From Thermodesulfobacteriota bacterium (GTDB lineage: Bacteria; Desulfobacterota_D; UBA1144; Nemesobacterales; Nemesobacteraceae): DNA of 64,000 nt. The stretch spans positions 206,650 through 270,649 of the forward strand of contig OZ242012.1 in assembly GCA_965204795.1 (NCBI GenBank), in the 5' to 3' direction. The translations under genes and the position numbers were made by a program. The number at the start of each line of letters is the position of its first letter. The first letter of the stretch is position 1. Below, piece by piece: positions 3,454 through 44,093 of the stretch. The notes below the pieces were generated by a model, which was not told the origin of the DNA, searched no databases, and saw only the letters and a list, made by a program, of their open reading frames with translations.

Positions 3454-4053
3454 GTGTCCGTAAGCGTGAAAGTGATGAAGCGCCCCCGCCTTTCCTTCTG
3501 GGAGAAGCTCTACCTGCCCCAGGTGCTGAGAGGGCTCGCCATCACCCTTAGGCACATAACGCGCTTTCGGCCCATAACCGTGAAGTATCCCGAAGAGGTG
3601 AAGGCCCTTCCCGAAAACTACAGGGGGCTTCACGTGATGCCGGGAGACGACGAGGGGCGCATAAGGTGCGTGGCGTGCAAGCTCTGCGAAATCGCGTGTC
3701 CCACCCAGGCGATCTCCATAGTGTCGGAACCGGCGGACGACTACGGCGTCGAGAGGCGTCCCAGGGTGTACAACATAGACTTCATGCGCTGCGTTTTCTG
3801 CGGGTTCTGCGTGGAGGCGTGTCCCTGCGACGCGCTTCGGATGGGAATGAAGTACGAACTCGCGTCCTACAGCCGCGCGGGGCTCGTTCACACCAAGGAG
3901 GTTTTCTTCGACCCCGACGTGAAGAGCCTGGCGCCCAGGGACAACGCGAACTTTCTCTACGGCATGGGACTGGGAGAGATACTGGATTCTTCCGAAGAAG
4001 TCTCCGAAGCGAAGAAGCTTGACGGCACCTATTCCGTGAAGCGGAGTTCCTGA
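3454..4053 (+). CDS. nuoI: NuoI-like 2x[4Fe-4S] ferredoxin subunit (NADH-quinone oxidoreductase subunit I family), orphan
   Basis: Two CxxCxxCxxxCP motifs (CVACKLCEIACP and CVFCGFCVEACP) with NuoI-like spacing and an N-terminal region YPEE. GTG start at 3454; ATG at 3475 is an alternative. No other nuo genes are adjacent. Confidence 0.8.
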   Translation: MSVSVKVMKRPRLSFWEKLYLPQVLRGLAITLRHITRFRPITVKYPEEVKALPENYRGLHVMPGDDEGRIRCVACKLCEIACPTQAISIVSEPADDYGVERRPRVYNIDFMRCVFCGFCVEACPCDALRMGMKYELASYSRAGLVHTKEVFFDPDVKSLAPRDNANFLYGMGLGEILDSSEEVSEAKKLDGTYSVKRSS

Positions 4054-4501: not shown

Positions 4502-5722
4502 ATGGCCGATATTAAACCGATTCGCACCGAAGCGGATTATGAGGCCGCGCTGGCGCGCATCAGAAAGATTTTTCATTCCGACCTTGGAACTCCCGAGGGC
4601 GATGAGCTTGATGTTCTGGCCGACTTGGTTGAACGGTATGAAGACAGACATGAAGTGGTCGACTGTCCCGACCCCGTCGACGCGATCAAGTTCCGCATGG
4701 AGCAGGCGGGGCTGAAGCAGCGCGACCTGATTCCTTACGTGGGAAGTCGTGCCAAGGTTTCGGAGGTTCTTTCCGGCAAGCGTGCTATAACGATGTCCAT
4801 GGCGCGCGCGCTGCACGAACATCTGGGCATTCCTGCGGATGTTCTGCTTCGGAAACCGGGCGGGACGTTTGAGAATCCGTTGAGTGATATTCAATGGAGC
4901 CGATTTCCGCTCAAGGAAATGGCGAAGCGTAAATGGATTCCCGATGCTCCCGATCTTGAGGCGCACGCGGAAAAATCCGTCGGCGAAATGATGAGAAAGG
5001 CCGGCGGATGGGACGAGACGCGCGCCGCCGCGCTGTTCAGAAAAAACGATCACCGGTATGTCAACTCCAAAACGGATTCTTACGCTCTTAAGGCCTGGTG
5101 CCTGCAGGTCTTGGTGACCGCAACCCAGAATCCCCCGCCGGCAAACTACAGGTCGGGCACGGTCACTCCGGATTTTCTCAATAAAGTCGCCCGCATCAGC
5201 CGGTCGGAAAACGGCCCGCGGCTCGCGAAAGAGTTCTTGGAAAAGCACGGGATTTCCCTGGTGACTCTGAAGCATTTACCGAGAACTTATCTGGACGGGG
5301 CCGCCTTGCGTCTGGGCGACGACCGACCGGTGATCGGGCTTACCCTGCGTCACGACCGCATAGACAGTTTCTGGTTCTGCCTGCTGCACGAGCTCGCGCA
5401 TCTGGGACTTCACATGGACAAAGACGACGGGGAAGCTTTCGTCGACGATCTGACTCTGCGCGAAACCGGAGCGGCGGCGCGGGATTCGAAAGAAGCGCAG
5501 GCGGACCAATGGGCGGAAGAAGCGCTGATACCGGAATCGGTCTGGGAAACAAGCGAGGCGCGACTGCGACCCACCGCCATGGCCGTTATCGACCTGGCGA
5601 ATTTTCTGAATATTCATCCGGCTATAGTCGCGGGCAGGGTGCGCCGCGAACGGGACAATTACCGCCTGCTCTCCCAGTTCGTCGGAAACGGCATGATCAG
5701 GCCGCAGTTCGATTTTTCCTGA
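4502..5722 (+). CDS. higA: HigA-family HTH antitoxin fused to an ImmA/IrrE (M78) zinc-metallopeptidase domain
   Basis: Perfect SD AAGGAGGTG sits 7 nt upstream. The N-terminal ~115 aa match the canonical HigA motifs (IKPIRTEADYEAALARI...GTPEGDELDVLADLVERYEDRH...PDPVDAIKFRMEQAGLKQRDL...SRAKVSEVLSGKRAITMSMARALHEHLGIPADVLL). The C-terminal ~250 aa carry HEXXH (LLHELAHLGLH) plus a downstream E, typical of the COG2856 ImmA/IrrE family. It starts 3 nt after the higB stop. Confidence 0.85.
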   Translation: MADIKPIRTEADYEAALARIRKIFHSDLGTPEGDELDVLADLVERYEDRHEVVDCPDPVDAIKFRMEQAGLKQRDLIPYVGSRAKVSEVLSGKRAITMSMARALHEHLGIPADVLLRKPGGTFENPLSDIQWSRFPLKEMAKRKWIPDAPDLEAHAEKSVGEMMRKAGGWDETRAAALFRKNDHRYVNSKTDSYALKAWCLQVLVTATQNPPPANYRSGTVTPDFLNKVARISRSENGPRLAKEFLEKHGISLVTLKHLPRTYLDGAALRLGDDRPVIGLTLRHDRIDSFWFCLLHELAHLGLHMDKDDGEAFVDDLTLRETGAAARDSKEAQADQWAEEALIPESVWETSEARLRPTAMAVIDLANFLNIHPAIVAGRVRRERDNYRLLSQFVGNGMIRPQFDFS

Positions 5723-5725
5723 CGG

Positions 5726-7576
5726 CTAAAGCCAGTCTTCTCCGCCGAAGATGTCGGCTTCCTCGTGGCGAAACCCGGGTTCCGGGTCGCTGTTGCGAAA
5801 TCCCCTGAACTGCAGGAGTCCCGAAACGGCGGACTTTATCTGCCTTCTCTCGGCCACCAGGTGAACCCCGCCGTTGTCGTCGTAGAACTCCGAAGACATT
5901 ATCTTCGGGTCGACCCCCCGGCCGCCGCTCGTGAGCTTCACCACCCTGTCTCCGGCAAACGCTATGGTCGCCTTTTTCTCCGCTATTATGAAATCCCCCT
6001 GCACGGCGTAGCTCGCGAGCGCCCCTCCGGTCGTCGGGTGTCCCAGAATGGAGATGTTCGGAAGCCCGTGCTCCCGAAGTCTCATCAGCGCCTCTATGGT
6101 CTTGGCCATCTGGTAGAGCGCGACGGTTCCTTCCTGCATGCGCGCTCCTCCGCTCACGGTGACCGTTATCAGGGGAAGCCTGTGCTCCACGGCGTAGCTC
6201 ACGACCATGTTCATCTTCTCCCCGAAAACGCTGCTCATCGACCCGCCCATGAACCGGAAGTCGCAGACGGCCACCGCCACGGGCATTGCGAACATCGTGC
6301 CGTAGCCCGTGACCAGGGAGTCCCTGGAGTCGGTCTTTCCGGCGAGCTTCTGCCTGGAGGACGCGTAGTTGAAAAACTTGTACGCGGGGTCTATGTCCTC
6401 CACGGCCAGCTCGGGCTCTATTTCGTGAAACGACTCCCCGTCGAGCAGGAAGTCGAGGTAGTCGTCGGAGCTCAGCGCCTCGGGCCTGTGGCAGTAGGGA
6501 CAGGAGGAGTTGTTGGCGTGAAGCTCTTCCTTGGTGAGCTGGCTCTTGCAGCCGGGTCGGATCGTCTTGCCCTGGCCGTCCTTTTCGTCGTTGCAGAAGT
6601 GGGGCTCGGAGCCGTAGATGGCTATCTGCATCTCCGATATGTCGTGGCTCTGCCTGCTTCCGCTGAAGTAGTTGGGAAGCCAGGCCTTTATCTTTTTCGA
6701 TATTCCCTCGTAGATTCTCCGCTGCTTCTTTACCCGCCCGCACCTTCTTATCTTTTCCCGAAGCTCCTCCGAGAGGCGCCTCGTCTCCGAGTTCTCGAGC
6801 TCCCGCACGGCCGCGGCGAGCGACTTTCCCAGGCTTTTCAGCGTCTGGGTCATGTAGCCGGGTTTTCCGAGCGGCGCCTCCTTCACTATCTCGTCTATTA
6901 TTCCGTAGCGCTTCATGTGCACGGCGGTGGGCTGGAGCACCTCGAGGGCCTCGGCCACCTTGTCCGCGCTTCGAAACAGTATCGCCGAGCACCCCTCGGC
7001 GGTTATGACGGAGTATTCGGCGCGCGACAGCATGAGCCTCCTGTGCCCGAGCTGTATGGCTATGGCGCCCCCGCTTCCCCCGAGTCCCAGCACCGTGGTC
7101 ACGGTCCTCGTGCGAAGCGAGATCATCTTCGACTGGCAGTAGGAGATGAGCCACGACTGGAGCTTCTCGGCCGAGTACTCGTAGGGATCCCCTCCCACGG
7201 TGTCGACGAACGTGAAGAGCGTGAGGCCGTTTCGCTCCGCGTAGTCCATCATGCACCACGAAAGCCCGTACCCGTCGGCCTTCACCATTCCGTAGTTGAG
7301 CGCCGCCCTTTCCTTTTCGCCCGAGGGCGTCTGCTGGGCTATCACGGCCGAGAGCGTTCCCGTGGGCTTGAACCTCGCCGTTCCCACTATCACCGAGGGG
7401 TCGTTGACGAACTCTATCTTTTTTCCCGAGGGGGCGTGGATGAAGCTTCTGAATCCAGAAAGCTCGTTCCAGGGAGTGAAGTCCGTGAAAAGCGCCGAGA
7501 GCACGTGCTTCGACTTCACGCGGTCGTAGGACTTGGCCTCTTCGTGGGACTGGAGGATTTTGGGGGTCTTCGCCAT
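5726..7576 (-). CDS. accA-accD: acetyl-CoA carboxylase carboxyltransferase, fused alpha (AccA) and beta (AccD) subunits
   Basis: 616 aa. The N-terminal half matches AccA (FVDTVGGDPY...LGLGGSGGAIAIQLGHRRLMLSRAEYSVITAEGCSAILFRSADK). The C-terminal half matches AccD, with a zinc-ribbon CPYCHRPE, then FAMPVAVAVCDFRFMGGSMSSV and SGGARMQEGTVALYQMAKT. Confidence 0.88.
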   Translation of the reverse strand: MAKTPKILQSHEEAKSYDRVKSKHVLSALFTDFTPWNELSGFRSFIHAPSGKKIEFVNDPSVIVGTARFKPTGTLSAVIAQQTPSGEKERAALNYGMVKADGYGLSWCMMDYAERNGLTLFTFVDTVGGDPYEYSAEKLQSWLISYCQSKMISLRTRTVTTVLGLGGSGGAIAIQLGHRRLMLSRAEYSVITAEGCSAILFRSADKVAEALEVLQPTAVHMKRYGIIDEIVKEAPLGKPGYMTQTLKSLGKSLAAAVRELENSETRRLSEELREKIRRCGRVKKQRRIYEGISKKIKAWLPNYFSGSRQSHDISEMQIAIYGSEPHFCNDEKDGQGKTIRPGCKSQLTKEELHANNSSCPYCHRPEALSSDDYLDFLLDGESFHEIEPELAVEDIDPAYKFFNYASSRQKLAGKTDSRDSLVTGYGTMFAMPVAVAVCDFRFMGGSMSSVFGEKMNMVVSYAVEHRLPLITVTVSGGARMQEGTVALYQMAKTIEALMRLREHGLPNISILGHPTTGGALASYAVQGDFIIAEKKATIAFAGDRVVKLTSGGRGVDPKIMSSEFYDDNGGVHLVAERRQIKSAVSGLLQFRGFRNSDPEPGFRHEEADIFGGEDWL

Positions 7577-37284: not shown

Positions 37285-38229
37285 ATGACCGACGTATACG
37301 AAGAGATAGACGCCCTCAGAAGGGAGAAAAACGCCGTAATCCTGGCGCACAACTACCAGATACCCGAGATACAGGATCTCGCCGACTACACCGGGGATTC
37401 CCTCGGGCTCTCGCAGAAGGCCTCGGAGACCGACGCCGAAATAATAGTTTTCTGCGGGGTCCATTTCATGGCCGAAACCGCGTCCATCATCTCCCCGGAC
37501 AAAAAAGTTCTCATTCCCGACCCCGGGGCCGGCTGCTCCCTCGCCGAAACGATAAACGTGGAGCAGCTTCGGGAGTGGAAGGCGCAGCACCCCGACGCGC
37601 TGGTGGTCTCCTACGTGAACACCTCGGCCGCGGTGAAGTCCGAAACCGACTACTGCGTCACTTCCTCAAACGCCGTCAAGGTGGTGGAGTCCATTCCCCG
37701 GGACAGGGAAATACTTTTTCTGCCCGACATGTATCTCGGCTCCTTCGTGGCCAGGACCACTGGGAGAAAGATCCATGTCTGGCCCGGGGAGTGCCACGTC
37801 CACGCGGGGATAAGACCGGCCGACATAAGGGAGATGAAGGAGAGCCATCCCGGGGCCGAGATGATCGTTCACCCCGAGTGCGGATGCACGACGACGTTTC
37901 TGGCCGCGGCGGCGCGCGACGAAGAGCTCGCGGGAGAGATAAAGTTCTTTTCCACAGGCAAGATGATCGATCACACGCGCAATTCCGACACGGAGGAATT
38001 CGTGGTCGCCACCGAAACGGGGATTCTCCACACCCTGAGAAAGCAGAGTCCGGAAAAAAAGTTCTGGCCGGCCAGGGAAGATGCGGTCTGCGAGTACATG
38101 AAGATGATAACGGTCGAGGGAGTGGCGAATTCCCTCAGAAAAGAGGTCCACGAGGTCAGGGTTCCGGAGGAGATAGCCGCGAAGGCGAAAAAGTCGATAG
38201 ACAGAATGCTCTACATATCGGCTCAGTAA
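37285..38229 (+). CDS. nadA: quinolinate synthase A
   Basis: 314 aa with the three-Cys motif contexts (AHNYQ...CSLAET; VVSYVNTSAAVK; ECHVHAG..HPEC). Confidence 0.9.
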   Translation: MTDVYEEIDALRREKNAVILAHNYQIPEIQDLADYTGDSLGLSQKASETDAEIIVFCGVHFMAETASIISPDKKVLIPDPGAGCSLAETINVEQLREWKAQHPDALVVSYVNTSAAVKSETDYCVTSSNAVKVVESIPRDREILFLPDMYLGSFVARTTGRKIHVWPGECHVHAGIRPADIREMKESHPGAEMIVHPECGCTTTFLAAAARDEELAGEIKFFSTGKMIDHTRNSDTEEFVVATETGILHTLRKQSPEKKFWPAREDAVCEYMKMITVEGVANSLRKEVHEVRVPEEIAAKAKKSIDRMLYISAQ

Positions 38230-38316
38230 CCTGCCGCTGCGCCCAAACCGGTCCGTTCGGAGGAATGTCGGCTCCGGCGCTGGCCGTAAGCGAGCGGAAA
38301 AGCGCTCCGGCGGTCT

Positions 38317-38928
38317 TTACTCCCGCCTAGCTTTCAGGGACAGGCTGATACAGTCTTTCGCCCGGCTCTTTCCTATGAGACCCACGACCCTGTCCTCGAT
38401 TTCCCCGGGAACGTTCATGTGCGCCTTGCGGAGAGCGTTGTATACGGCGTCTCTTTGCCCCTCCTTTCCCAGTGCCCGCCTTATCCTTTCATTGAACAGC
38501 AGGTCGATGGTCATGACCGTCGGGACCCGCGGAAAGCTCTTTTCGCATATCTTTTTGGCCTTTTTTTCGTCTATCATCGCTACCCCTCCGATTTCCGCGG
38601 CGTGGGCTATGACCGACGCTTCTCCGTCGTCGAGCGCGTGGAGAATCTCCCCCGAGACCAGGGATTCGAAGATTTTCTTCCCGACCTCGCCGAGGTCAGC
38701 CAGGCCGACGACCCCGCTCCCGGTCAGGGACTGAAGCTTCTCTCCGGTCCCGTGTCCTTTCTCCGCGCCTCGCGCCAGTTCGCGTCGCACGTCGCCCGTC
38801 ACGACCAGGGGATTGCGCAACGCCGCGACGATTCGTTCCAGGAACCCGGTGGCGGCCAGGTTGATCACGACGCTTGTATCGGCGACCAGGACGGCGTTCG
38901 GGTCAGTTGGGAAGTCTGAAGAGCTCAT
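38317..38928 (-). CDS. PIN-like domain protein (DUF4411-like), candidate toxin partner of the upstream ImmA/IrrE regulator
   Basis: 203 aa. The N-terminus AVLVADTSVVINLAATGF is a PIN-type first strand with an acidic residue. GEASVIAHAAEIGGVAMIDEKKA recalls the DUF4411 core. It overlaps the upstream XRE-ImmA/IrrE gene by 26 nt. Confidence 0.6.
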   Translation of the reverse strand: MSSSDFPTDPNAVLVADTSVVINLAATGFLERIVAALRNPLVVTGDVRRELARGAEKGHGTGEKLQSLTGSGVVGLADLGEVGKKIFESLVSGEILHALDDGEASVIAHAAEIGGVAMIDEKKAKKICEKSFPRVPTVMTIDLLFNERIRRALGKEGQRDAVYNALRKAHMNVPGEIEDRVVGLIGKSRAKDCISLSLKARRE

Positions 38929-40147
38929 TGGCTTCCTCTTGACCCATGTCGGCCAGTATCTTCCTGACCGCGATGCGGCCTAGGTCGAGGAGCCGGGCGA
39001 GCTGACCTTCGCTGTAGAAATCCCTTTTCCACGCCTCTCTCGCCAGAAGGACCAGCCGAGGCGGCAGGATGTCTCCGGCGACCGAAGCGCTTACGTGCCT
39101 GGGAGGCAGATGTCCTAGCACTTCCTTCGCCTGCCTGTCGGTGATTTTTCCGTTGGACTCGAACCATTCCCAGGTTCCTTCCCTGATCAGGGAAAGTTCC
39201 TCGAGTCTTCGCACCATGGCTTCGCGGGACACTCTGTGCTCGTGCGCGAGCAGTATGACATGACGCCGGGTGAAATGAGACTGGCCGTCGGTTATCCTGG
39301 CGAAGCTTTCGGCCACCCCGCGCGCCGGAGTCAGAAACGCGCGGGCGAAGCGGTCCGCGTATCTTTCCTCGCGGGAGCGGAATTTCTCGTCCTCGGTCAG
39401 GACTTCCGCCTGCTCTCGCGTCGAACAGAAGTGCCCGAGTTCGTGGGCCGCGGTCTGCCGTATGCGGTCGACCGGGTGGTTGGCGTTCAGCAGTATGCAG
39501 GCCCCGACGCTTTCTTCACAGGTGAACAGTCCCGATATCCTGTGGTCGATCTTCCTCGCGTACACGCGGATTCCCAGTCGCCGGTCGAGCAGCGATATGA
39601 TGTCCGGCGCCGGTCCCGCCCCGGTTCCCAGCCAGTCGCGCAGTTCCTGCGCGTTGCTCTCGGCCTGTGCCTCCACGTCGCCCGGAAGGATGGGACGCTG
39701 CGGCGGATATCGCCTCGTCCTGCCCGCCCCGAGCACGTTCTCAAGCTCGGTTTCCGCCTTGGCGAGCCTGCTTAGAAGGGCGGCCGCATAGTTTACGGCA
39801 TCGTCCTCGCTCCGTCGCAGCTTGCGGAAACGCGGAACGAGGTCGACATGTATCGCCTCGCGGCGCAATATGGCGTTTGCCGAAGTTCCGTAGAGCGCGG
39901 CGAGCCTCTGCAGTTCCTCTATGCCCGCGCGGCGGAGTCCCCGTTCCACGGCTACGAGGGTGGTCCGCGACAGGTCTGTTCTTTCCGCGGCCGCGGCCTG
40001 GGTCATGCGCGCCGACTTTCTGGCGATGCGAAGCCTTTCGCCGATCTCCCCGTCGCCGAGTCTTCCGGTTCCGCGCGATGCGGGAAGCCGCGCCGGGGGA
40101 GCCTTGCCGACCGCTGCGCCGTCCTGCTTTGTGATTTCTTTCGTCAT
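38903..40147 (-). CDS. XRE-family HTH regulator fused to an ImmA/IrrE (M78) zinc-metallopeptidase domain
   Basis: Start ATG 40147 (MTKEITK) has GGGAGG 8 nt upstream. HTH: IGERLRIARKSARMTQAAAAERTDLSRTTLVAVERG. HEXXH: TAAHELGHF, with a downstream E..YADRFA. The track ORF is extended 94 aa N-terminally. Confidence 0.82.
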   Translation of the reverse strand: MTKEITKQDGAAVGKAPPARLPASRGTGRLGDGEIGERLRIARKSARMTQAAAAERTDLSRTTLVAVERGLRRAGIEELQRLAALYGTSANAILRREAIHVDLVPRFRKLRRSEDDAVNYAAALLSRLAKAETELENVLGAGRTRRYPPQRPILPGDVEAQAESNAQELRDWLGTGAGPAPDIISLLDRRLGIRVYARKIDHRISGLFTCEESVGACILLNANHPVDRIRQTAAHELGHFCSTREQAEVLTEDEKFRSREERYADRFARAFLTPARGVAESFARITDGQSHFTRRHVILLAHEHRVSREAMVRRLEELSLIREGTWEWFESNGKITDRQAKEVLGHLPPRHVSASVAGDILPPRLVLLAREAWKRDFYSEGQLARLLDLGRIAVRKILADMGQEEANELFRLPN

Positions 40148-40349
40148 TCTGCCGTCCTCCCTAGTTTCCCGACAAACGATCCGGGTCCCGGAGATTTCAC
40201 GTATTGTTTCCGTTCGGCCGCATGTCCCGCCGCCCGCCCGTTCGTTCTTTTTTCCGCTTCGTCCCTCGAAATGCCCGGGACGGGCACCGGAACCGTCGCA
40301 TGTCTCCTGACCGGTTCGGACGTAAGGTTCTGCGGGGTCCGTCGCACAT

Positions 40350-40510
40350 GATTCAAACTTTATGTCAAAATAATGCTGTTTGTCGGTTGAAATGTCAAAC
40401 CCTGCCATGAAACTGAAAAATTCTTTCATAAGAGAAAATCACATTTTTCATTTCGGAATCGTTATACGGGAAAATCTTGGAAATGTTGTTATAAAAAAAA
40501 GTTTATGATT
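40350..40510 (-). promoter_or_regulatory. AT-rich intergenic region between ggt and the XRE-ImmA/IrrE gene with direct repeats ATGTCAAA; putative promoter/operator
   Basis: About 160 bp of roughly 25-30% GC sits in a ~65% GC context. ATGTCAAA occurs at 40362-40369 and 40392-40399, 30 bp apart. On the minus strand each repeat reads TTTGACAT and so contains a TTGACA -35 hexamer. Confidence 0.4.
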
Positions 40511-40752
40511 ATTTTGCGGGTTGGCCAACATGAAGAAATAGCCGGCCTCGGAGGGTCGCTGGCCGGAATTTTCGGTCCGGGCTTGGAGATGTTTCGCCGC
40601 GGGGAGTCGTTATGGCTGCGGCGCGGACCGGTCCTGGGCGGCCACGGCGGCGGGGAAGTCCGATGTCGGGCGAGAGGGAGCGGGAAAAGATTCCGTCGGG
40701 CGGTGCGGAAAAGCCGATGGACGGAATGTTCCGCGTATCCGCCCGGCAGCCG

Positions 40753-42555
40753 TCAAAAACCCGAAGCCCACGCTCCGGGCCGCCGTGCGTCCGCGGCCCC
40801 GAAAAGCGTTTTTCCGCGCACCGAGAGGCTCTGGGCCTTGCCTATGGAGTCCGCGGTCTTTACCGTGTGTCCTTTCCTGCGAAGCTCCGCGGCCACGTCT
40901 TTTCCCACTCCCGGTTCGAGGTAGAGAACGTCGGGAAGCCACTGATGGTGCGCCCTGGGGGCGTCCACGGCGCGACGAACGTCCATCCCGTGGTCTATCA
41001 CGTTGAGAATCACCTGCAACACGGTGGTTATTATCCTGCTCCCGCCCGGGCTTCCCGTGGCCAGCACCGGCCGCCCGTTTCTGGTCACTATGGTGGGAGT
41101 CATGGAACTCAGCATTCTCTTTCCCGGGGCTATGGAGTTTTTCTCGCCGCCCACGAGGCCGTAGGCGTTGGGCGCCCCCGGCTTGGAGGAAAAGTCGTCC
41201 ATTTCGTTGTTGAGCAGAATGCCGGTGCCCGGGACCGAAAGTTTCGAGCCGTAGGGAAAATTGAGCGTGTAGGTGTTGGAAACCACGTTCCCGAACCTGT
41301 CGGCCACGACGAAGTGGGTGGTGTCCTCGCCCCCGGCCGAAAGCGGGTCGCCGGGACTTACCGCCGCGCTAGGCGTCGCCCTCTCCGTGTCGACCAGCGG
41401 GAGGAGCCGCGCGGCGTATTTCTTCGAGGCGATCTCCCTGGCGGGAACTGGAGAGAAGTCGGGGTCGCCCAGATGCTTGGACCTGTCGGCGTAGGCGAGC
41501 TTCATGGTTTCCGCCAGAACGTGCAGGTATCGGGCCGAGTTGTGCCCGTAGTCCGAAAGGGGGTGGCTCTCGAGAATGTTCAGCATCTGCACCAGGTGCA
41601 CTCCGCCCGAGCTCGGAGGCGGCATGGAGTATATCCTGTGGCCCCTGTAGTCTCCGACGGTCGGGCTTCTTTCGGCCGGGGAGTACGCCGCGAGGTCCCG
41701 GCGGGTCACGAGGCCTCCTTCCTTTTCCATGTATGCCGCTATTTTCTCCGCCACCGCTCCCCTGTAGAAGGCGGCGGGTCCGTTTTTCCTTATTTCTCTC
41801 AGGGTCCAGGCGAGGTTTTTCTGCGCGAGAATCTCCCCCACCCGCGGCGGCTTCCCGTTTTTCGGGAAAAAGACCTCCATGCTCTCCCCGGATCTTTTCA
41901 TCCCTTCTCTCGCTTCCAGAAGGGACTCTCTGAGTTCCCGGTCCACGGGGAATCCCTTTTCCGCAAGCTCTATCGCGGGCTCCAGAGCCTTTTCGAGCGG
42001 GATGGTTCCGTATTTCTCGAGCGCCGTCGCGAGCCCAGCGACCGTTCCCGGAACCCCCGAAGAGTAGATGCTGTTTCTGGCCTTCTCGTTGTCGACCTCC
42101 CCGTTTTCGTCGAGAAACATGTCCCTCGTCGCTTTTTCGGGCGCCTTCTCCCTGTAGTCCACGGCCACGGCCTCGCCCCGGTCGGCAAGGTAGATCATCA
42201 TGAACCCGCCGCCCCCCAGGTTTCCGGCTCTCGGGAAAGTGACCGCCAGGGCGAATCCCATGGCGACCGCGGCATCCACGGCGTTTCCTCCGTTTCTGAG
42301 CACCTCGAGTCCGGCGAGGGTCGCCAGCCTGTCGGCCGACACCGCCATGCCGTTTTCGAACGGGCCGGACTGCCGCCCGCCCTCGCCGCGGGAGGAAAAC
42401 CTGGCGCAGGACGTCGCCGCCAGCAGAACGAGGCACAGGCAGAGCGCGGCGGCCCGTATTCCCGCGCGTCCCGTCTTTTCGCCGTGCCGGCGGAAGACGT
42501 TCAGAAGGAAAGGGCGTGGGCGTAGCGCCTCGACATGTTCATCCTGTCTTCGCAT
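40753..42555 (-). CDS. ggt: gamma-glutamyltransferase (lipoprotein-type signal)
   Basis: Lipobox ...LVLLAATSC. The Ntn-hydrolase nucleophile lies in ...GGEDTTHFVVADRFGNVVS and the C-terminus has GSPGGSRI. ATG 42555 is the only canonical in-frame start that includes the signal peptide; it overlaps the upstream sigma gene by 55 nt. Confidence 0.85.
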   Translation of the reverse strand: MRRQDEHVEALRPRPFLLNVFRRHGEKTGRAGIRAAALCLCLVLLAATSCARFSSRGEGGRQSGPFENGMAVSADRLATLAGLEVLRNGGNAVDAAVAMGFALAVTFPRAGNLGGGGFMMIYLADRGEAVAVDYREKAPEKATRDMFLDENGEVDNEKARNSIYSSGVPGTVAGLATALEKYGTIPLEKALEPAIELAEKGFPVDRELRESLLEAREGMKRSGESMEVFFPKNGKPPRVGEILAQKNLAWTLREIRKNGPAAFYRGAVAEKIAAYMEKEGGLVTRRDLAAYSPAERSPTVGDYRGHRIYSMPPPSSGGVHLVQMLNILESHPLSDYGHNSARYLHVLAETMKLAYADRSKHLGDPDFSPVPAREIASKKYAARLLPLVDTERATPSAAVSPGDPLSAGGEDTTHFVVADRFGNVVSNTYTLNFPYGSKLSVPGTGILLNNEMDDFSSKPGAPNAYGLVGGEKNSIAPGKRMLSSMTPTIVTRNGRPVLATGSPGGSRIITTVLQVILNVIDHGMDVRRAVDAPRAHHQWLPDVLYLEPGVGKDVAAELRRKGHTVKTADSIGKAQSLSVRGKTLFGAADARRPGAWASGF

Positions 42556-43814
42556 ATTCTTATCTTCTTCGAGTAGAAAGCCTTTTCGAAGGGTTCGCGG
42601 GCGAGGTCCGTCGCCCGGCGGAAGTTCGATATGGCGTCCCGGTAGCTGTGAAGCTCGAAATGAAGGTTTCCCAGAGTCGAGTACAGAAGGCCGTGCGACT
42701 CGAGCCGCTCTATGCCCCGGATTTCCCTCACTGCCTCCAGTCCTTCCCGCGGCCCGCGCTTTTTCGATACGGCTATCGCCTTGTGAAGTTCGACCACGGG
42801 GCAGTGCCTGCACGCCAGGTAGCTGTCGTAGAGGGAGATGATGCGGTCCCAGTCGGTGTCGCCGTATCTTTTCGCGAGGGAATGGACGGCTTCCACCCCG
42901 GCCTTCAGATGAATTTCCGTGACCTCGTTTCCGTCTTCCGCCGAAAGGGAGAGATGTTCGAATCCCCGCCTTATCATGTCCCCGTCCCAGAGGTCCCTGT
43001 TCTGCTCCCTTATGCCTACGGGTTTTCCCCCGGAGTCCCGCATGGTGTCGAGCCTCGCGGCGTTGAGAAGCATGAAGGACAAAAGAGCGTGCGTCGCGGG
43101 CCTTCTGGTAAGGGAAAAGCCGCAGAGCATCTCCCCGAGCCTTATCGCGGCGAAGCAGAGACGGGGCTCGGGAGACGTCTCCCCGCCGCGGCCGCCGAGT
43201 CCCATGGCGAAGATCTCGGAGACGTTTCTCGTCGCCGCCCCGAGATTGCGCTCCACGCCCCCGGGCGTCGTCATGGAGGCGGGAACGACCGTTCCGGAGA
43301 TTATCTTTTCCTTTTCGCGGGAAAGCTCCCTTTCGAGCGCCTTTTCGCTTTTTCCGAAAATCCTGGCCACGGAGGCGCAGGAAAATCCGCACAGCACGTC
43401 CAGCAGAAGCGGCTTTCGCAGCGAATCCCTTATCCGCGGCGAGCACAGCGAGAGAAGAAACCCGACCTGGCGTTCGGCCGCCTTTTCCTTTTCCGGAAAG
43501 GCCGGGCGGAACTTCGACACGTCGAACCTTTCCCCGCCGCGGCTTCTGCCCGCGAGATAGTTGACCTTGGCGCAGAAAAGCTTGCTCGAGTCTTCCGTTA
43601 TCTCGTTCCAGACGGCCGCCCGCGGGTCGCGGGGAATTCCGTTTCTCCCCCATTCGGCCCTGGCCTTTTCGAACGAGTTCCGACAGACCCTCTGCACGTG
43701 CTCCAGGCTCCGCATGCCGAAAACCCCGACCAGAGTGCATACTATCGCCCCGTAGTCGTCCGTCGTCTGCTTTTCTATCAGCCTGTTTACTTCCGGACTG
43801 TGACGCTTTATTCC
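42501..43814 (-). CDS. ECF sigma factor with C-terminal TPR-like extension (COG4941 / ECF42-type, DUF6596)
   Basis: Regions sigma2 (GIPRDPRAAVWN) and sigma4 (LLLDVLCGFSCASVARIFGKSEKALERELSREKEKI) are present. The C-terminal domain has REQNRDLWD, GDTDWDRIISLYDSYL and PVVELHKAIAV, which parallel COG4941 proteins. TTG start at 43814 (GGAGAG 5 nt upstream) is assumed; the track ORF is longer. Confidence 0.7.
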   Translation of the reverse strand, partial: GIKRHSPEVNRLIEKQTTDDYGAIVCTLVGVFGMRSLEHVQRVCRNSFEKARAEWGRNGIPRDPRAAVWNEITEDSSKLFCAKVNYLAGRSRGGERFDVSKFRPAFPEKEKAAERQVGFLLSLCSPRIRDSLRKPLLLDVLCGFSCASVARIFGKSEKALERELSREKEKIISGTVVPASMTTPGGVERNLGAATRNVSEIFAMGLGGRGGETSPEPRLCFAAIRLGEMLCGFSLTRRPATHALLSFMLLNAARLDTMRDSGGKPVGIREQNRDLWDGDMIRRGFEHLSLSAEDGNEVTEIHLKAGVEAVHSLAKRYGDTDWDRIISLYDSYLACRHCPVVELHKAIAVSKKRGPREGLEAVREIRGIERLESHGLLYSTLGNLHFELHSYRDAISNFRRATDLAREPFEKAFYSKKIRICEDRMNMSRRYAHALSF

Positions 43815-44093
43815 CAACCTGGCTCTCCGCGTTCCCAGCTTCCGCCATGGTCCGGATGTTCGTTTCCGGGCGCGCCGGCGGGGCGAGGAAAGTGCAAAAT
43901 TTCGGGTAAGGAGAGTAAAGCATAAAGCCCCGTAAAGCAAGAAAGAGGCGGGGCAACCAACCAAATTTAAAAAACCGGACATTTGTTTTGCTCGCAATTG
44001 ACACTCTCTGCTGGAGGGTTTAGATTTTCCATGCGCGGCTTGCCGCAAGGTGCCGTAGCGGAAACGGGTCGCCGGCTCTCGTTAGGAACGGTT

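Follow-up and report, generated by a model that had tools for sequence, protein, structure and literature searches.

Between nadA and ggt, on the minus strand of a 64,000-nucleotide stretch of Thermodesulfobacteriota DNA (the whole stretch analysed, hereafter the window), lies a cassette of two overlapping genes, here called A and T, and the locus raises the question of what this pair does and how it came to stand behind DNA of such unusual composition. A first-pass annotation had read A as the window's second fusion of an XRE helix-turn-helix (HTH) with an M78 metallopeptidase (414 aa, HELGH), T as a PIN-like protein of the DUF4411 type (203 aa, VADTSVVINL) whose start is overlapped by A, and the DNA upstream as an AT-rich leader with two direct repeats. 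The fusion, the overlap and the placement between the two core genes were confirmed (nadA flank, PF02445, 1e-118; ggt flank, PF01019, 2e-177; both Pfam), and the DUF4411 label and the reading of the leader had to be revised.

Gene A (38903..40147, minus strand; ATG at 40147, stop at 38903) encodes 414 aa, with GGAGGA at 40160-40155 as its Shine-Dalgarno sequence. An XRE HTH (residues 34-97, 40048-39857; Pfam HTH_3 at residues 39-90, 1e-10) is joined to an M78 zinc-peptidase (residues 190-315, 39580-39203; Pfam Peptidase_M78, 1.3e-15), and residues 286-405 make up a conserved helical C-terminal region of ~120 aa. The HELGH motif lies at residues 235-239 (39445-39431) and the HExxH...E site is intact; within the family, HExxH plus the downstream Glu is invariant, as are, residue by residue, H235, E236, H239 and S258-R259-E261-Y263-A264. 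Among the PADLOC models, A matches RmrA (up to 4.4e-29, residues 37-325), capP (2.5e-16) and capH (9e-5), and in NCBIfam it has weak matches to the RamB and PuuR HTHs. A fold search picks up only the XRE HTH, which can be superposed on ImmR, DdrO and SinR at about 1 Å; the structure model of A is of low quality (pLDDT 58), the 37-sequence alignment behind it being too uniform (77% mean column identity). The first HTH-M78 fusion of the window (4502-5722, plus strand, HELAH) is unrelated to A by sequence, being detected only via the HExxH motif and Pfam, and no second copy of A or T was found in the 64-kb window by tblastn or phmmer.

Gene T (38317..38928, minus strand, 203 aa, containing VADTSVVINL) shares 26 nt with A (38928-38903). 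Its PIN-fold nuclease domain spans residues ~13-135, the assignment to the PIN fold and the VapC-like superfamily being confident; the C-terminus (residues ~140-203) forms a conserved helical domain of about 65 aa. The earlier assignment had been tied to the acidic residues of the PIN site, and these are nearly invariant: D17, E50, D101 (plus E103) and D120 are at least 90% conserved among 136 family representatives. The DUF4411 type, on the other hand, was not supported, since T has no PF14367 match at E <= 1 in Pfam, and none of the family members (0/136) matches this model at E <= 0.1. The Pfam PIN model (PF01850) is matched weakly, by 33 of the 136 members, the T of the window not being one of them; NCBIfam and PDB sequence searches gave no match for T, and its PADLOC matches are to PDC-S70 models only. 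COG2405/DUF3368, of which we take SSO1118 (2mdt) to be the COG2405 representative, appears to be a nearer subgroup for T than DUF4411, the current Pfam model (PF11848) giving no match. The ATG of T sits 16 codons ahead of D17 in 89 of 95 loci. As in VapBC, a VapC/PIN fold with four acidic residues is present; unlike in VapBC, the partner is a 414-aa HTH-peptidase and not a small RHH/AbrB/Phd antitoxin (about 70-100 aa), and T carries the additional C-terminal helical domain. Relatives of T were absent from IMG/VR viral contigs.

The stretch of very low GC upstream of the pair is real, with a GC content of 0.29 for 40350-40510 versus 0.615 for the whole window, and the lowest-GC 160-bp windows of the entire 64 kb fall within it. 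However, it is a promoter-operator region and not the leader for which it had been taken; the true leader (40356-40148, 210 nt) is GC-rich. The sole promoter-like site found in 38000-41000 is of the sigma-70 type (40370..40398, minus strand), agreeing with the consensus at 10 of 12 positions (-35 TTGACA at 40398-40393, 17-nt spacer, -10 CATTAT at 40375-40370), and from it a transcription start near 40363 is predicted. This layout recurs in related loci. Farther upstream, an AT-rich region (40400..40525, minus strand) forms the left edge of the mobile cassette. The two direct repeats that had been noticed are ATGTCAAA at 40362-40369 and at 40392-40399, 30 bp apart from start to start, each giving TTGACA on the coding strand. 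In Markov simulations, an exact 8-mer repeat in such AT-rich DNA has a P of about 0.5 and is non-significant as stand-alone evidence; for two TGTCAA hexamers P is about 0.015. We accept the boxes as real because about 30 other loci keep both of them at this spacing.

Putative operator box 1 (TGACATTTCAA, 40387..40397, minus strand) overlaps the -35 element and repeats the family palindrome TGACA(T/A)TGTCA in degenerate form, the family form at this place being TGACATTGTCA; about 30 loci have the consensus TTGACA[T/A]TGTCA at the box 1 position, ahead of the operon. Putative box 2 (TGACAT, 40362..40367, minus strand) follows box 1 at a distance of 30 nt and falls on the predicted transcription start. 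The conserved promoter-operator can be described as TTGACAnTGTCA over the -35, then (C/T)TGACAT 30-31 nt downstream, start to start. This two-box pattern has 32 coding-strand matches in the locus set, 28 of them upstream of the operon, with two more loci also carrying the pattern, and only 5 opposite-strand matches in 570 kb. Presumably, it is the HTH of A that binds the TGACA boxes.

Judged by the similarity of its two parts, the leader is a relic of the start of one gene and the end of another. In about 70% of related species, two extra genes lie between the promoter and A, encoding a ~190-aa protein starting MSDGP (B-like, or B) and a QatC-like protein of the QueC family (C). In the window, a relic of the B-like start is located at 40311..40349 (minus strand; ATG at 40349, MCDGPRRTLRPNR), its ATG 48 nt after box 1. 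The intact operons of loci L006, L093 and L094 have precisely this spacing; the relic peptide matches MSDGPHSTLPLNR of L093, and its frame continues for 50 codons without similarity. The last ~60 codons of a QatC-like gene are recognizable at 40144..40332 (minus strand), inside a 70-codon open frame (40356-40144) whose TGA overlaps the ATG of A as ATGA. When a profile of 60 QatC-like C-termini was run against the window's 1042 six-frame segments, this frame alone matched (E = 5.3e-7), and residues 413-480 of the L093 C protein align with the relic at 37% identity without gaps (tblastn, E = 1.7e-8). Both conserved Trp residues of the QatC-like C-terminus are replaced in the relic; the window contains no other QatC-like sequence, and an intact QatC gene is absent. 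The possibility that the 70-codon frame encodes a functional small protein was rejected, given that it is unconserved (stop at codon 4 in the L001 leader, further deletion of about 100 nt in the L010 leader) and has the invariant Trp residues replaced. No known RNA element was found in the leader by an Rfam scan of 38000-41000, where a P31 match was attributed to chance (22 bits versus a gathering score of 40 bits, on the wrong strand inside gene A). The cassette of the window would have arisen from an ancestral operon of four genes (B-like, QatC-like, A, T) when ~1.8 kb were lost from its interior, the promoter, A and T being spared.

Co-conservation in other genomes, on which the first-pass annotation had also staked its reading, is pronounced: A is directly followed by T in 91 of 92 related loci, which span many phyla and include conjugative plasmids; the single exception is a truncated contig, and no sampled locus has T without A upstream. 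Among GTDB species representatives the family comprises at least 496 loci, with copies on rhizobial conjugative plasmids. In L001 and L011, the same cassette, at 87% nucleotide identity, is found in other surroundings, between unrelated genes, and homology with these loci stops at 40525 and 38321, beginning on the left side at 40525/40519 with 67-69% identity. We read the cassette as a self-contained, horizontally mobile unit of the HTH-M78-peptidase plus PIN-nuclease type. The four-gene operon is widespread and apparently undescribed, and is reported here as a new finding; a literature search for ties of QatC or QueC to XRE, M78, ImmA or PIN returned nothing relevant. An intact four-gene operon is found, for example, on Labrenzia pTHAF187b_c (FIV03_RS31010-31025, NZ_CP045347.1). 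At least 17 species representatives have a two-gene form, in some cases with the promoter abutting A and no relic in between. B and C have been lost repeatedly and independently, with differing deletion endpoints, and A-T and the promoter are always kept; for some two-gene loci, the nearest relatives are four-gene loci (92-95% A identity). Decay of A or T, where seen, hits T, with its start codon lost in L001, L011, L012 and L093 while A is intact, and with an altered T C-terminus as well in L011. Among two-gene relatives, both genes are under purifying selection (dN/dS of 0.15-0.41 for A and 0.22-0.35 for T). A is the better conserved of the two (54-65% identity, versus 40-53% for T); most classical type II pairs show the opposite pattern.

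In our reading, A-T is most likely an autoregulated pair of the toxin-antitoxin or abortive-infection kind, resembling RosmerTA. RosmerTA (RmrT/RmrA) is an anti-phage toxin-antitoxin system for which an antitoxin with a Zn-peptidase is documented (Millman et al. 2022, 10.1101/2022.05.11.491447; Ernits et al. 2023, PMC10440598), and pairings of the ImmA node with PIN-like domains were described in NetFlax (Ernits et al. 2023, PMC10440598). The likeness consists in an RmrA-type partner with an N-terminal HTH and an ImmA/M78 zinc-peptidase (the 4.4e-29 match) and in a two-gene operon with a variable toxin. On the other side, T lacks a match to the RmrT models of PADLOC, which lowers membership in RosmerTA but not the analogy, because RmrT families are heterogeneous. 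Moreover, A has the conserved C-terminal extension of ~120 aa, the A-T family has its own conserved operator, and in most species the operon has four genes, a QatC-like one among them. A further parallel is found in the in silico "three-component" modules of HTH, DUF955 (COG2856) and PIN-like parts, defined by a PIN-like gene at most 100 nt downstream of an HTH-DUF955 gene on the same strand; one of them, from Geobacillus, has a COG2405 PIN gene behind an HTH-DUF955 fusion (Matelska et al. 2017, PMC5499597). Here, a fused HTH-M78 gene stands directly upstream of a same-strand PIN-like gene with a complete acidic site, the two overlapping by 26 nt, and the same arrangement is seen in 91/92 loci; the operator, the C-terminal domain of T and the link to the QueC/QatC family are not mentioned in that study.

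Our best explanation, to which we assign a probability of roughly 0.6, is that of a mobile, autoregulated HTH-M78/PIN cassette with a T released by cleavage, descended from the four-gene operon. Dimers of A would bind the TGACA boxes and repress the operon, and A would restrain T, the conserved C-terminal region of A probably being responsible. Infection by a phage, DNA damage or a similar cue may then activate the peptidase domain, which would cleave A (or A would be titrated), by analogy with ImmA/ImmR, IrrE/DdrO and CapP/CapH; with A cleaved, the operon would be derepressed and T freed to cut RNA, and growth would arrest. We infer each step of this scheme, from the toxicity of T and its neutralisation by A to DNA binding and proteolysis. 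The pattern can be called addiction-like, since the loss of B-C is recurrent, A-T and the promoter persist throughout and decay affects T while A is intact. Weighing against the explanation are the missing RmrT match of T, the higher conservation of A than of T, and the lack of T relatives in IMG/VR. Also, the four-gene form is the commonest, so the native role may depend on the missing QatC-like and B-like proteins.

A broader proposal, which we hold tentatively and at somewhat less than even odds, is that A-T is the regulator/effector half of an undescribed four-gene, Qat-like defence system, in which the QatC-like enzyme would modify a protein partner, the peptidase-repressor would read this event and the PIN nuclease would be unleashed. 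In the anti-phage system QatABCD (PMC13279940, PMC13376578, PMC13329287), QatC is a QueC-family protein and is preceded by QatB. A small partner likewise precedes the QatC-like gene of the relatives; the latter is directly upstream of A, carries the QatC-cluster motifs and encodes a protein matching solved QatC at 8.6e-27. In contrast to QatABCD, neither the window nor the four-gene relatives contain qatA (ATPase), qatB or qatD (TatD), the relatives' protein reaches 112 bits with the NCBIfam QatC model, far under the 280-bit cut-off, its PP-loop reads S(D/E)GxDS, and the window holds only the ~60-codon 3' relic. The B-like protein has no sequence support as a QatB homologue, showing no similarity to QatB in PADLOC or the PDB and starting with MSDGP, not MGTS. 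If the proposal is true, the cassette of the window would be a naturally reduced version of the system, produced by one B-C deletion among many independent ones, with A-T as the autonomous, addictive core and B-C as an optional sensor or modifier layer.

Returning to the RosmerTA-like pair, its strongest competitor, in our view rather unlikely, is that A works purely as a transcriptional switch, a fused CapH/CapP-type protein that represses the operon via the TGACA operator and cleaves itself after DNA damage or infection, thereby inducing T; T would then be a plain inducible effector nuclease, with no protein-protein neutralisation, and the two would not form a true toxin-antitoxin pair. In the systems CapH/CapP, ImmR/ImmA and DdrO/IrrE, an XRE repressor and an M78 peptidase (HExxH...E) act at a promoter, as A would here; they differ in that A fuses both functions, so that one subunit would have to cleave itself or another, and in that A would control a PIN nuclease to which it is translationally coupled. 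The PADLOC matches to capP and capH speak for a switch, as do the resemblance of the HTH to ImmR and DdrO, natural substrates of M78 peptidases, the strong conservation of the operator over the -35 and +1, and its position in four-gene relatives upstream of the first gene, where it would control the whole operon. Against such a switch stand the strict 1:1 linkage of A and T, with overlap and fixed order (91/92 loci), the recurrent loss of B-C with T never found without A upstream (truncated contig apart), and the loss of T start codons while A is intact. These linkage and loss patterns fit a direct dependence of the cell on A, and transcriptional control as the sole brake is also compatible with them.

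It is less probable still that the copy in the window is a non-functional, decaying remnant, disabled by the loss of B-C and persisting by inertia or addiction. The leader is indeed a pseudogene fragment without the conserved Trp residues, box 1 is degenerate (TGACATTTCAA versus TGACATTGTCA) and the T start codon is lost in the sister copies L001, L011 and L012. However, both ORFs of the window are intact with all catalytic residues present, the promoter and the Shine-Dalgarno sequence are kept, dN/dS among two-gene relatives is 0.15-0.41, and two-gene forms exist in no fewer than 17 species representatives, some with the promoter directly abutting A. Finally, a role of A as a metabolic regulator of ggt or nadA with T unrelated (RamB/PrpR/ScfR type, which the fusion at 4502-5722 resembles) would agree with the existence of metabolic regulators among HTH-DUF955 fusions and with the weak RamB and PuuR HTH matches, but is very improbable, as A travels with T and not with nadA/ggt, its 87% copy lies among unrelated genes in L001 and L011, further copies are on plasmids, and cassette homology ends at 40525 and 38321.

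Taken alone, the two-gene cassette is another uncharacterised member of the HTH-M78-peptidase plus toxin kind, with an unusually clear and testable putative operator (palindrome over the -35 and half-site at the predicted start, 30 bp apart). Its leader reveals a wider family, the usual form of which couples a QatC-like enzyme and a small partner to a peptidase-repressor and a PIN nuclease. The 2026 structural papers on Qat leave unanswered how QatC-type enzymes act on partner proteins and by which route this leads to immunity, and a variant with a protease-gated repressor and a PIN nuclease downstream would offer a different, simpler read-out for QatC chemistry. The natural B-C deletion series provides a ready-made dissection of the four-gene system. 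The neighbourhoods of the relatives are rich in defence or toxin-antitoxin genes (HEPN/MNT, AAA_15, AbiJ, toxSAS, HipA, AbiEii).

The observation made in the first-pass annotation, an XRE-HTH/M78 peptidase fusion (A) followed by a PIN-like protein (T), is confirmed as a whole, and its interpretation holds in outline. The two genes form an overlapping minus-strand pair flanked by ggt, whose stop is at 40753, and the convergent nadA, whose stop is at 38229; Pfam confirms both flanks (2e-177 and 1e-118, respectively). Gene A runs on the minus strand from an ATG at 40147 to 38903 (414 aa; GGAGGA at 40160-40155, 5' of the start) and gene T, on the same strand, from an ATG at 38928 to 38317 (203 aa), with an overlap of 26 nt. 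The minus-strand gene upstream of ggt (42501-44048) has a 515-aa product in which a DUF6596 domain is recognised (1.7e-16). In A, Pfam identifies HTH_3 (residues 39-90, 1e-10) and Peptidase_M78 (residues 190-315, 1.3e-15), the latter with HELGH at residues 235-239. In PADLOC it matches models of the RosmerTA antitoxin, RmrA, at best at 4.4e-29, as well as capP (2.5e-16) and, weakly, capH. Across 84 distinct A sequences the HTH, the HExxH and a SREERYA..F..F..P motif are kept, and so are two stretches of the C-terminal region, 286-345 and 362-405. In ImmA/IrrE-type enzymes the SREERYA motif supplies the third zinc ligand. The structure model of A (pLDDT 58, above 70 only in the HTH and residues 270-400) is too poor to judge an A-T interface; a fold search with this model retrieved XRE HTH domains only, including ImmR (7t8i) and DdrO (6rnz).

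T has no match in Pfam, NCBIfam or PDB sequences, and its sole PADLOC match is the candidate PDC-S70 (2.8e-9). The AlphaFold2 model, built with 14 homologues, is confident (pLDDT 89.4, pTM 0.86), and a Foldseek search of the PDB gave PIN/VapC domains as all of its 50 best matches. An exhaustive profile search (E <= 1e-30) gave 405 representatives at 50% identity, nearly all ~200 aa in length. When 136 of these were aligned, D17, E50, D101, G102, E103 and D120 proved conserved at 90% or more. D17/E50/D101/E103/D120 are the PIN acidic site, so the lack of acidic residues that the first-pass annotation named as a possible objection is not seen. A second, helical domain spans residues 140-203 and has conserved positions of its own (R170, M171, G186, C193, S195, L196). 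The DUF4411 label proposed earlier was rejected, since PF14367 matches neither T nor any of the 136 members; PF01850 (PIN) is weakly matched by 33 of these. The precomputed Pfam annotation gives a strong PF11848 (DUF3368) for every T homologue (P0001-P0015 and the gene tables of L001-L012). A local 2025 Pfam-A scan found no PF11848 match in T or the 136 members, a discrepancy that may come from a changed model version. The subgroup is thus termed "COG2405-like, unconfirmed".

The pairing was followed in 92 loci with a T relative, 12 obtained by exact look-up of the closest proteins and 80 drawn from 496 confirmed matches among GTDB species representatives, these 80 ranging over Thermodesulfobacteriota, Alphaproteobacteria, Gemmatimonadota, Acidobacteriota, Binatia, Chloroflexota and Planctomycetota. 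The proposed co-conservation is borne out: in 91 of the 92 loci an A homologue lies immediately 5' of T on the same strand, usually overlapping it by a few codons, and in the remaining one the contig ends 75 nt upstream of T. Identity is higher for A (54-65%, over its full length) than for T (40-53%). A copy with 87% nucleotide identity occurs on a 2.27-Mb contig in another neighbourhood (ApbE, HEPN/MNT, AAA_15 and FTR1 genes), and homology to it spans 40525 to 38321 in the window and then stops, so that the ~2.2-kb cassette is mobile; the span singled out in the first-pass annotation fits this extent nearly exactly. The pair also occurs on 26 plasmid records, most of them from rhizobia and 14 of the 26 being conjugative, where the annotation reads only "XRE family transcriptional regulator" and "hypothetical protein"; it was absent from IMG/VR viral contigs. 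The cassette is flanked by a 9-bp direct repeat (minus-strand sequence CGGCCAGCG, at 40557-40565 and 38278-38286), ~32 nt beyond the left edge of homology and ~31 nt beyond the T stop codon; with a chance expectation of ~0.05 for such a match, it may reflect target-site duplication or be coincidental. Around other copies, defence or toxin-antitoxin genes were observed (L093, 473-3802 and 8481-11851; L002, 5130-8811; L011, 5314-6043 and 9253-10812), namely AAA_15/DUF4435, AbiJ/Abi_C, RelA_SpoT (toxSAS-like), Gp49/HigB-like, HipA/HipB, NERD-UvrD helicase and HEPN/MNT. These neighbourhoods are defence-island-like; the window cassette stands alone amid housekeeping genes.

Upstream of A, the only sigma-70-like promoter in 38000-41000 is found on the minus strand (TTGACA 40398-40393, 17-nt spacer, CATTAT 40375-40370). 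The first copy of the repeated element ATGTCAAA is its -35, and the second lies just past the -10, where transcription is expected to start. Judged from the window sequence only, this repeat is weak evidence (P ~0.5 for any 8-mer repeat, ~0.015 for two TGTCAA hexamers). The element is nevertheless real, as the same layout is shared 5' of the operon in ~30 other loci, with the box 1 consensus TTGACA(T/A)TGTCA, a perfect palindrome over the -35, and the box 2 consensus CTGACAT beginning 30-31 nt after the start of box 1. Across 570 kb of locus DNA, the pattern occurs 32 times on the coding strand, 28 of these at the operon-upstream position, against only 5 times on the opposite strand. The repeat is thus a conserved promoter-operator, and a -35 palindrome with a half-site at +1 is as expected for an autorepressing dimeric HTH protein, A being the likely binder; in the window copy the palindrome has a degenerate right half (TGACATTTCAA). 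It follows that the 160-bp stretch described earlier as an AT-rich leader, although indeed the lowest in GC within the 64 kb (0.29), is promoter and upstream DNA.

For the actual leader (40356-40148, GC 0.62), the earlier reading was incomplete, and larger relatives show what it is. Two extra genes are present between promoter and A, in full in ~57 of the 80 GTDB loci and partly deleted in 3 more, and in the four-gene arrangement every gene is translationally coupled. Intact operons are found at L045 89-3630, L093 4003-7834, L006 133-3825 and L094 1912-5615 (Labrenzia plasmid NZ_CP045347.1, 25250-28953). The first gene encodes a B-like protein of ~190 aa (N-terminus MSDGPH..LP, C-terminus G(L/I)D(E/D)GPxL) with no match in family-model searches. 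The second, named "7-cyano-7-deazaguanine synthase" in RefSeq, encodes a C-like, or QatC-like, protein of the QueC family (~457-482 aa, PP-loop S(D/E)GxDS), which matches NCBIfam QatC at 2.5e-32, but at 112 bits, well under the 280-bit cut-off, PADLOC QatC (7e-31) and Pfam QueC (6e-6). Searched as a profile, these proteins match solved QatC structures (9vlk, 8.6e-27; 9zee, 7.5e-24), and the alignment contains D-x4-R...WxR, DxWxxxF, RxRxxxF, ExG, HP, P-x4-TK and CGxCxxC..RR, the motifs that define the QatC cluster (PMC13329287). No qatA or qatD was found alongside these genes.

Both extra genes have left remains in the window leader, the start of the B-like gene and the end of the QatC-like one. 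The B-like relic begins at an ATG at 40349, 48 nt past box 1, the same spacing as in the intact L006, L093 and L094, and reads MCDGPRRTLRPNR versus MSDGPHSTLPLNR in L093. In a separate frame, 70 open codons, whose terminal TGA overlaps the ATG of A (ATGA), align gap-free to the C-terminus of QatC-like proteins; with a profile of 60 such C-termini, this frame was the only match among 1042 six-frame window segments (E = 5.3e-7), and it is 37% identical to residues 413-480 of the L093 protein (E = 1.7e-8). The deletion junction lies somewhere from ~40332 to ~40311, with a loss of ~1.8 kb. A conserved small ORF was considered and rejected: both family-invariant tryptophans are substituted, the leader region (40206-40350) is ~100 nt longer than in the 90%-identical L010 and ~146 nt longer than that of L001, and the L001 leader has an early stop. 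Thus, the leader is decaying non-coding sequence, evidently being shortened step by step, and independently, in copies that are close relatives.

By the same comparison, loss of B-C is recurrent, with A-T always kept. Deletion endpoints vary by lineage, the QatC-like gene being kept from residue 86 (L020), ~327 (L047), 379 (L060) or ~425 (window); L043 and L061 retain ~25 of its codons and L054, L077 and L073 none. Two-gene loci are scattered on a neighbour-joining tree of A, and for several the nearest relative is a four-gene locus, at 92-95% identity (L043/L023, L037/L056, L064/L089). Among the two-gene relatives of the window locus, A and T both evolve under purifying selection, with dN/dS at 0.15-0.41 and 0.22-0.35, respectively. 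The T ATG lies 16 codons 5' of D17 in 89 of 95 loci. It is changed to ACG or ACA in L001 (~5941), L011 (~7941), L012 and L093 (~7250), where A is intact, no substitute ATG, GTG or TTG occurs 5' of D17, and the codons before D17 are still conserved and in frame; the T C-terminus is altered too in L011 and L012. Either toxin silencing or non-canonical initiation would account for this. An expendable B-C, an A kept wherever T was sampled and a T occasionally silenced make up the evolutionary signature expected of an addictive toxin-antitoxin core, and are indirect evidence for one.

Component identities, intact catalytic motifs, operon layout, operator and relic can be read from the sequences, and the window locus is a reduced and probably functional derivative of a larger Qat-like operon. 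In the mechanism we propose, A would repress its own promoter via the TGACA boxes and hold T in check, probably by contact via the conserved C-terminal region; a signal would switch on the M78 domain and inactivate A, by analogy with ImmA/ImmR, IrrE/DdrO and CapP/CapH, and the freed T would cut RNA and cause growth arrest. The main rival, in which A is a transcriptional switch only, shares the autorepressor-like operator with this mechanism and differs from it over contact with T, for which the conserved C-terminal region is the candidate. It is less likely that the window copy is an inert remnant, its degenerate half-palindrome and decaying leader standing beside intact catalytic motifs and selection on A and T among its relatives. 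Regulation of the adjoining core genes by A is likewise less likely for a cassette found in other neighbourhoods.

Matelska et al. 2017 (PMC5499597) had already predicted the two-gene architecture in silico; they place COG2405, DUF4411, PIN_14, PIN_20 and PIN_26 adjacent to HTH-DUF955 and give as an example a Geobacillus HTH-DUF955 fusion 5' of a COG2405 gene. ImmA-PIN pairings were also noted by NetFlax (PMC10440598), and the cassette fits the RosmerTA concept, in which a Zn-peptidase antitoxin is paired with a toxin that varies (10.1101/2022.05.11.491447). The Qat papers (PMC13279940, PMC13376578, PMC13329287) treat qatABCD and type IV CBASS only, and state that only about a third of QatC-cluster genes adjoin qatA or qatD. 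In the literature searched there is no account of the A-T family operator, the T C-terminal domain or the four-gene arrangement with a QatC-like gene, and targeted searches returned nothing. The window locus is of more interest as a pointer to this four-gene family than in itself.

The window contains another HTH-M78 fusion (4502-5722, plus strand; 406 aa, HELAH; Peptidase_M78 4e-6, HTH_3 1e-5), which lacks detectable similarity to A and is not followed by a partner gene. Its neighbours are a ferredoxin gene (3454-4053) on one side and, on the other, a convergent acetyl-CoA carboxylase carboxyltransferase (5726-7576, minus). The fusion is possibly a metabolic regulator of the RamB/PrpR type.
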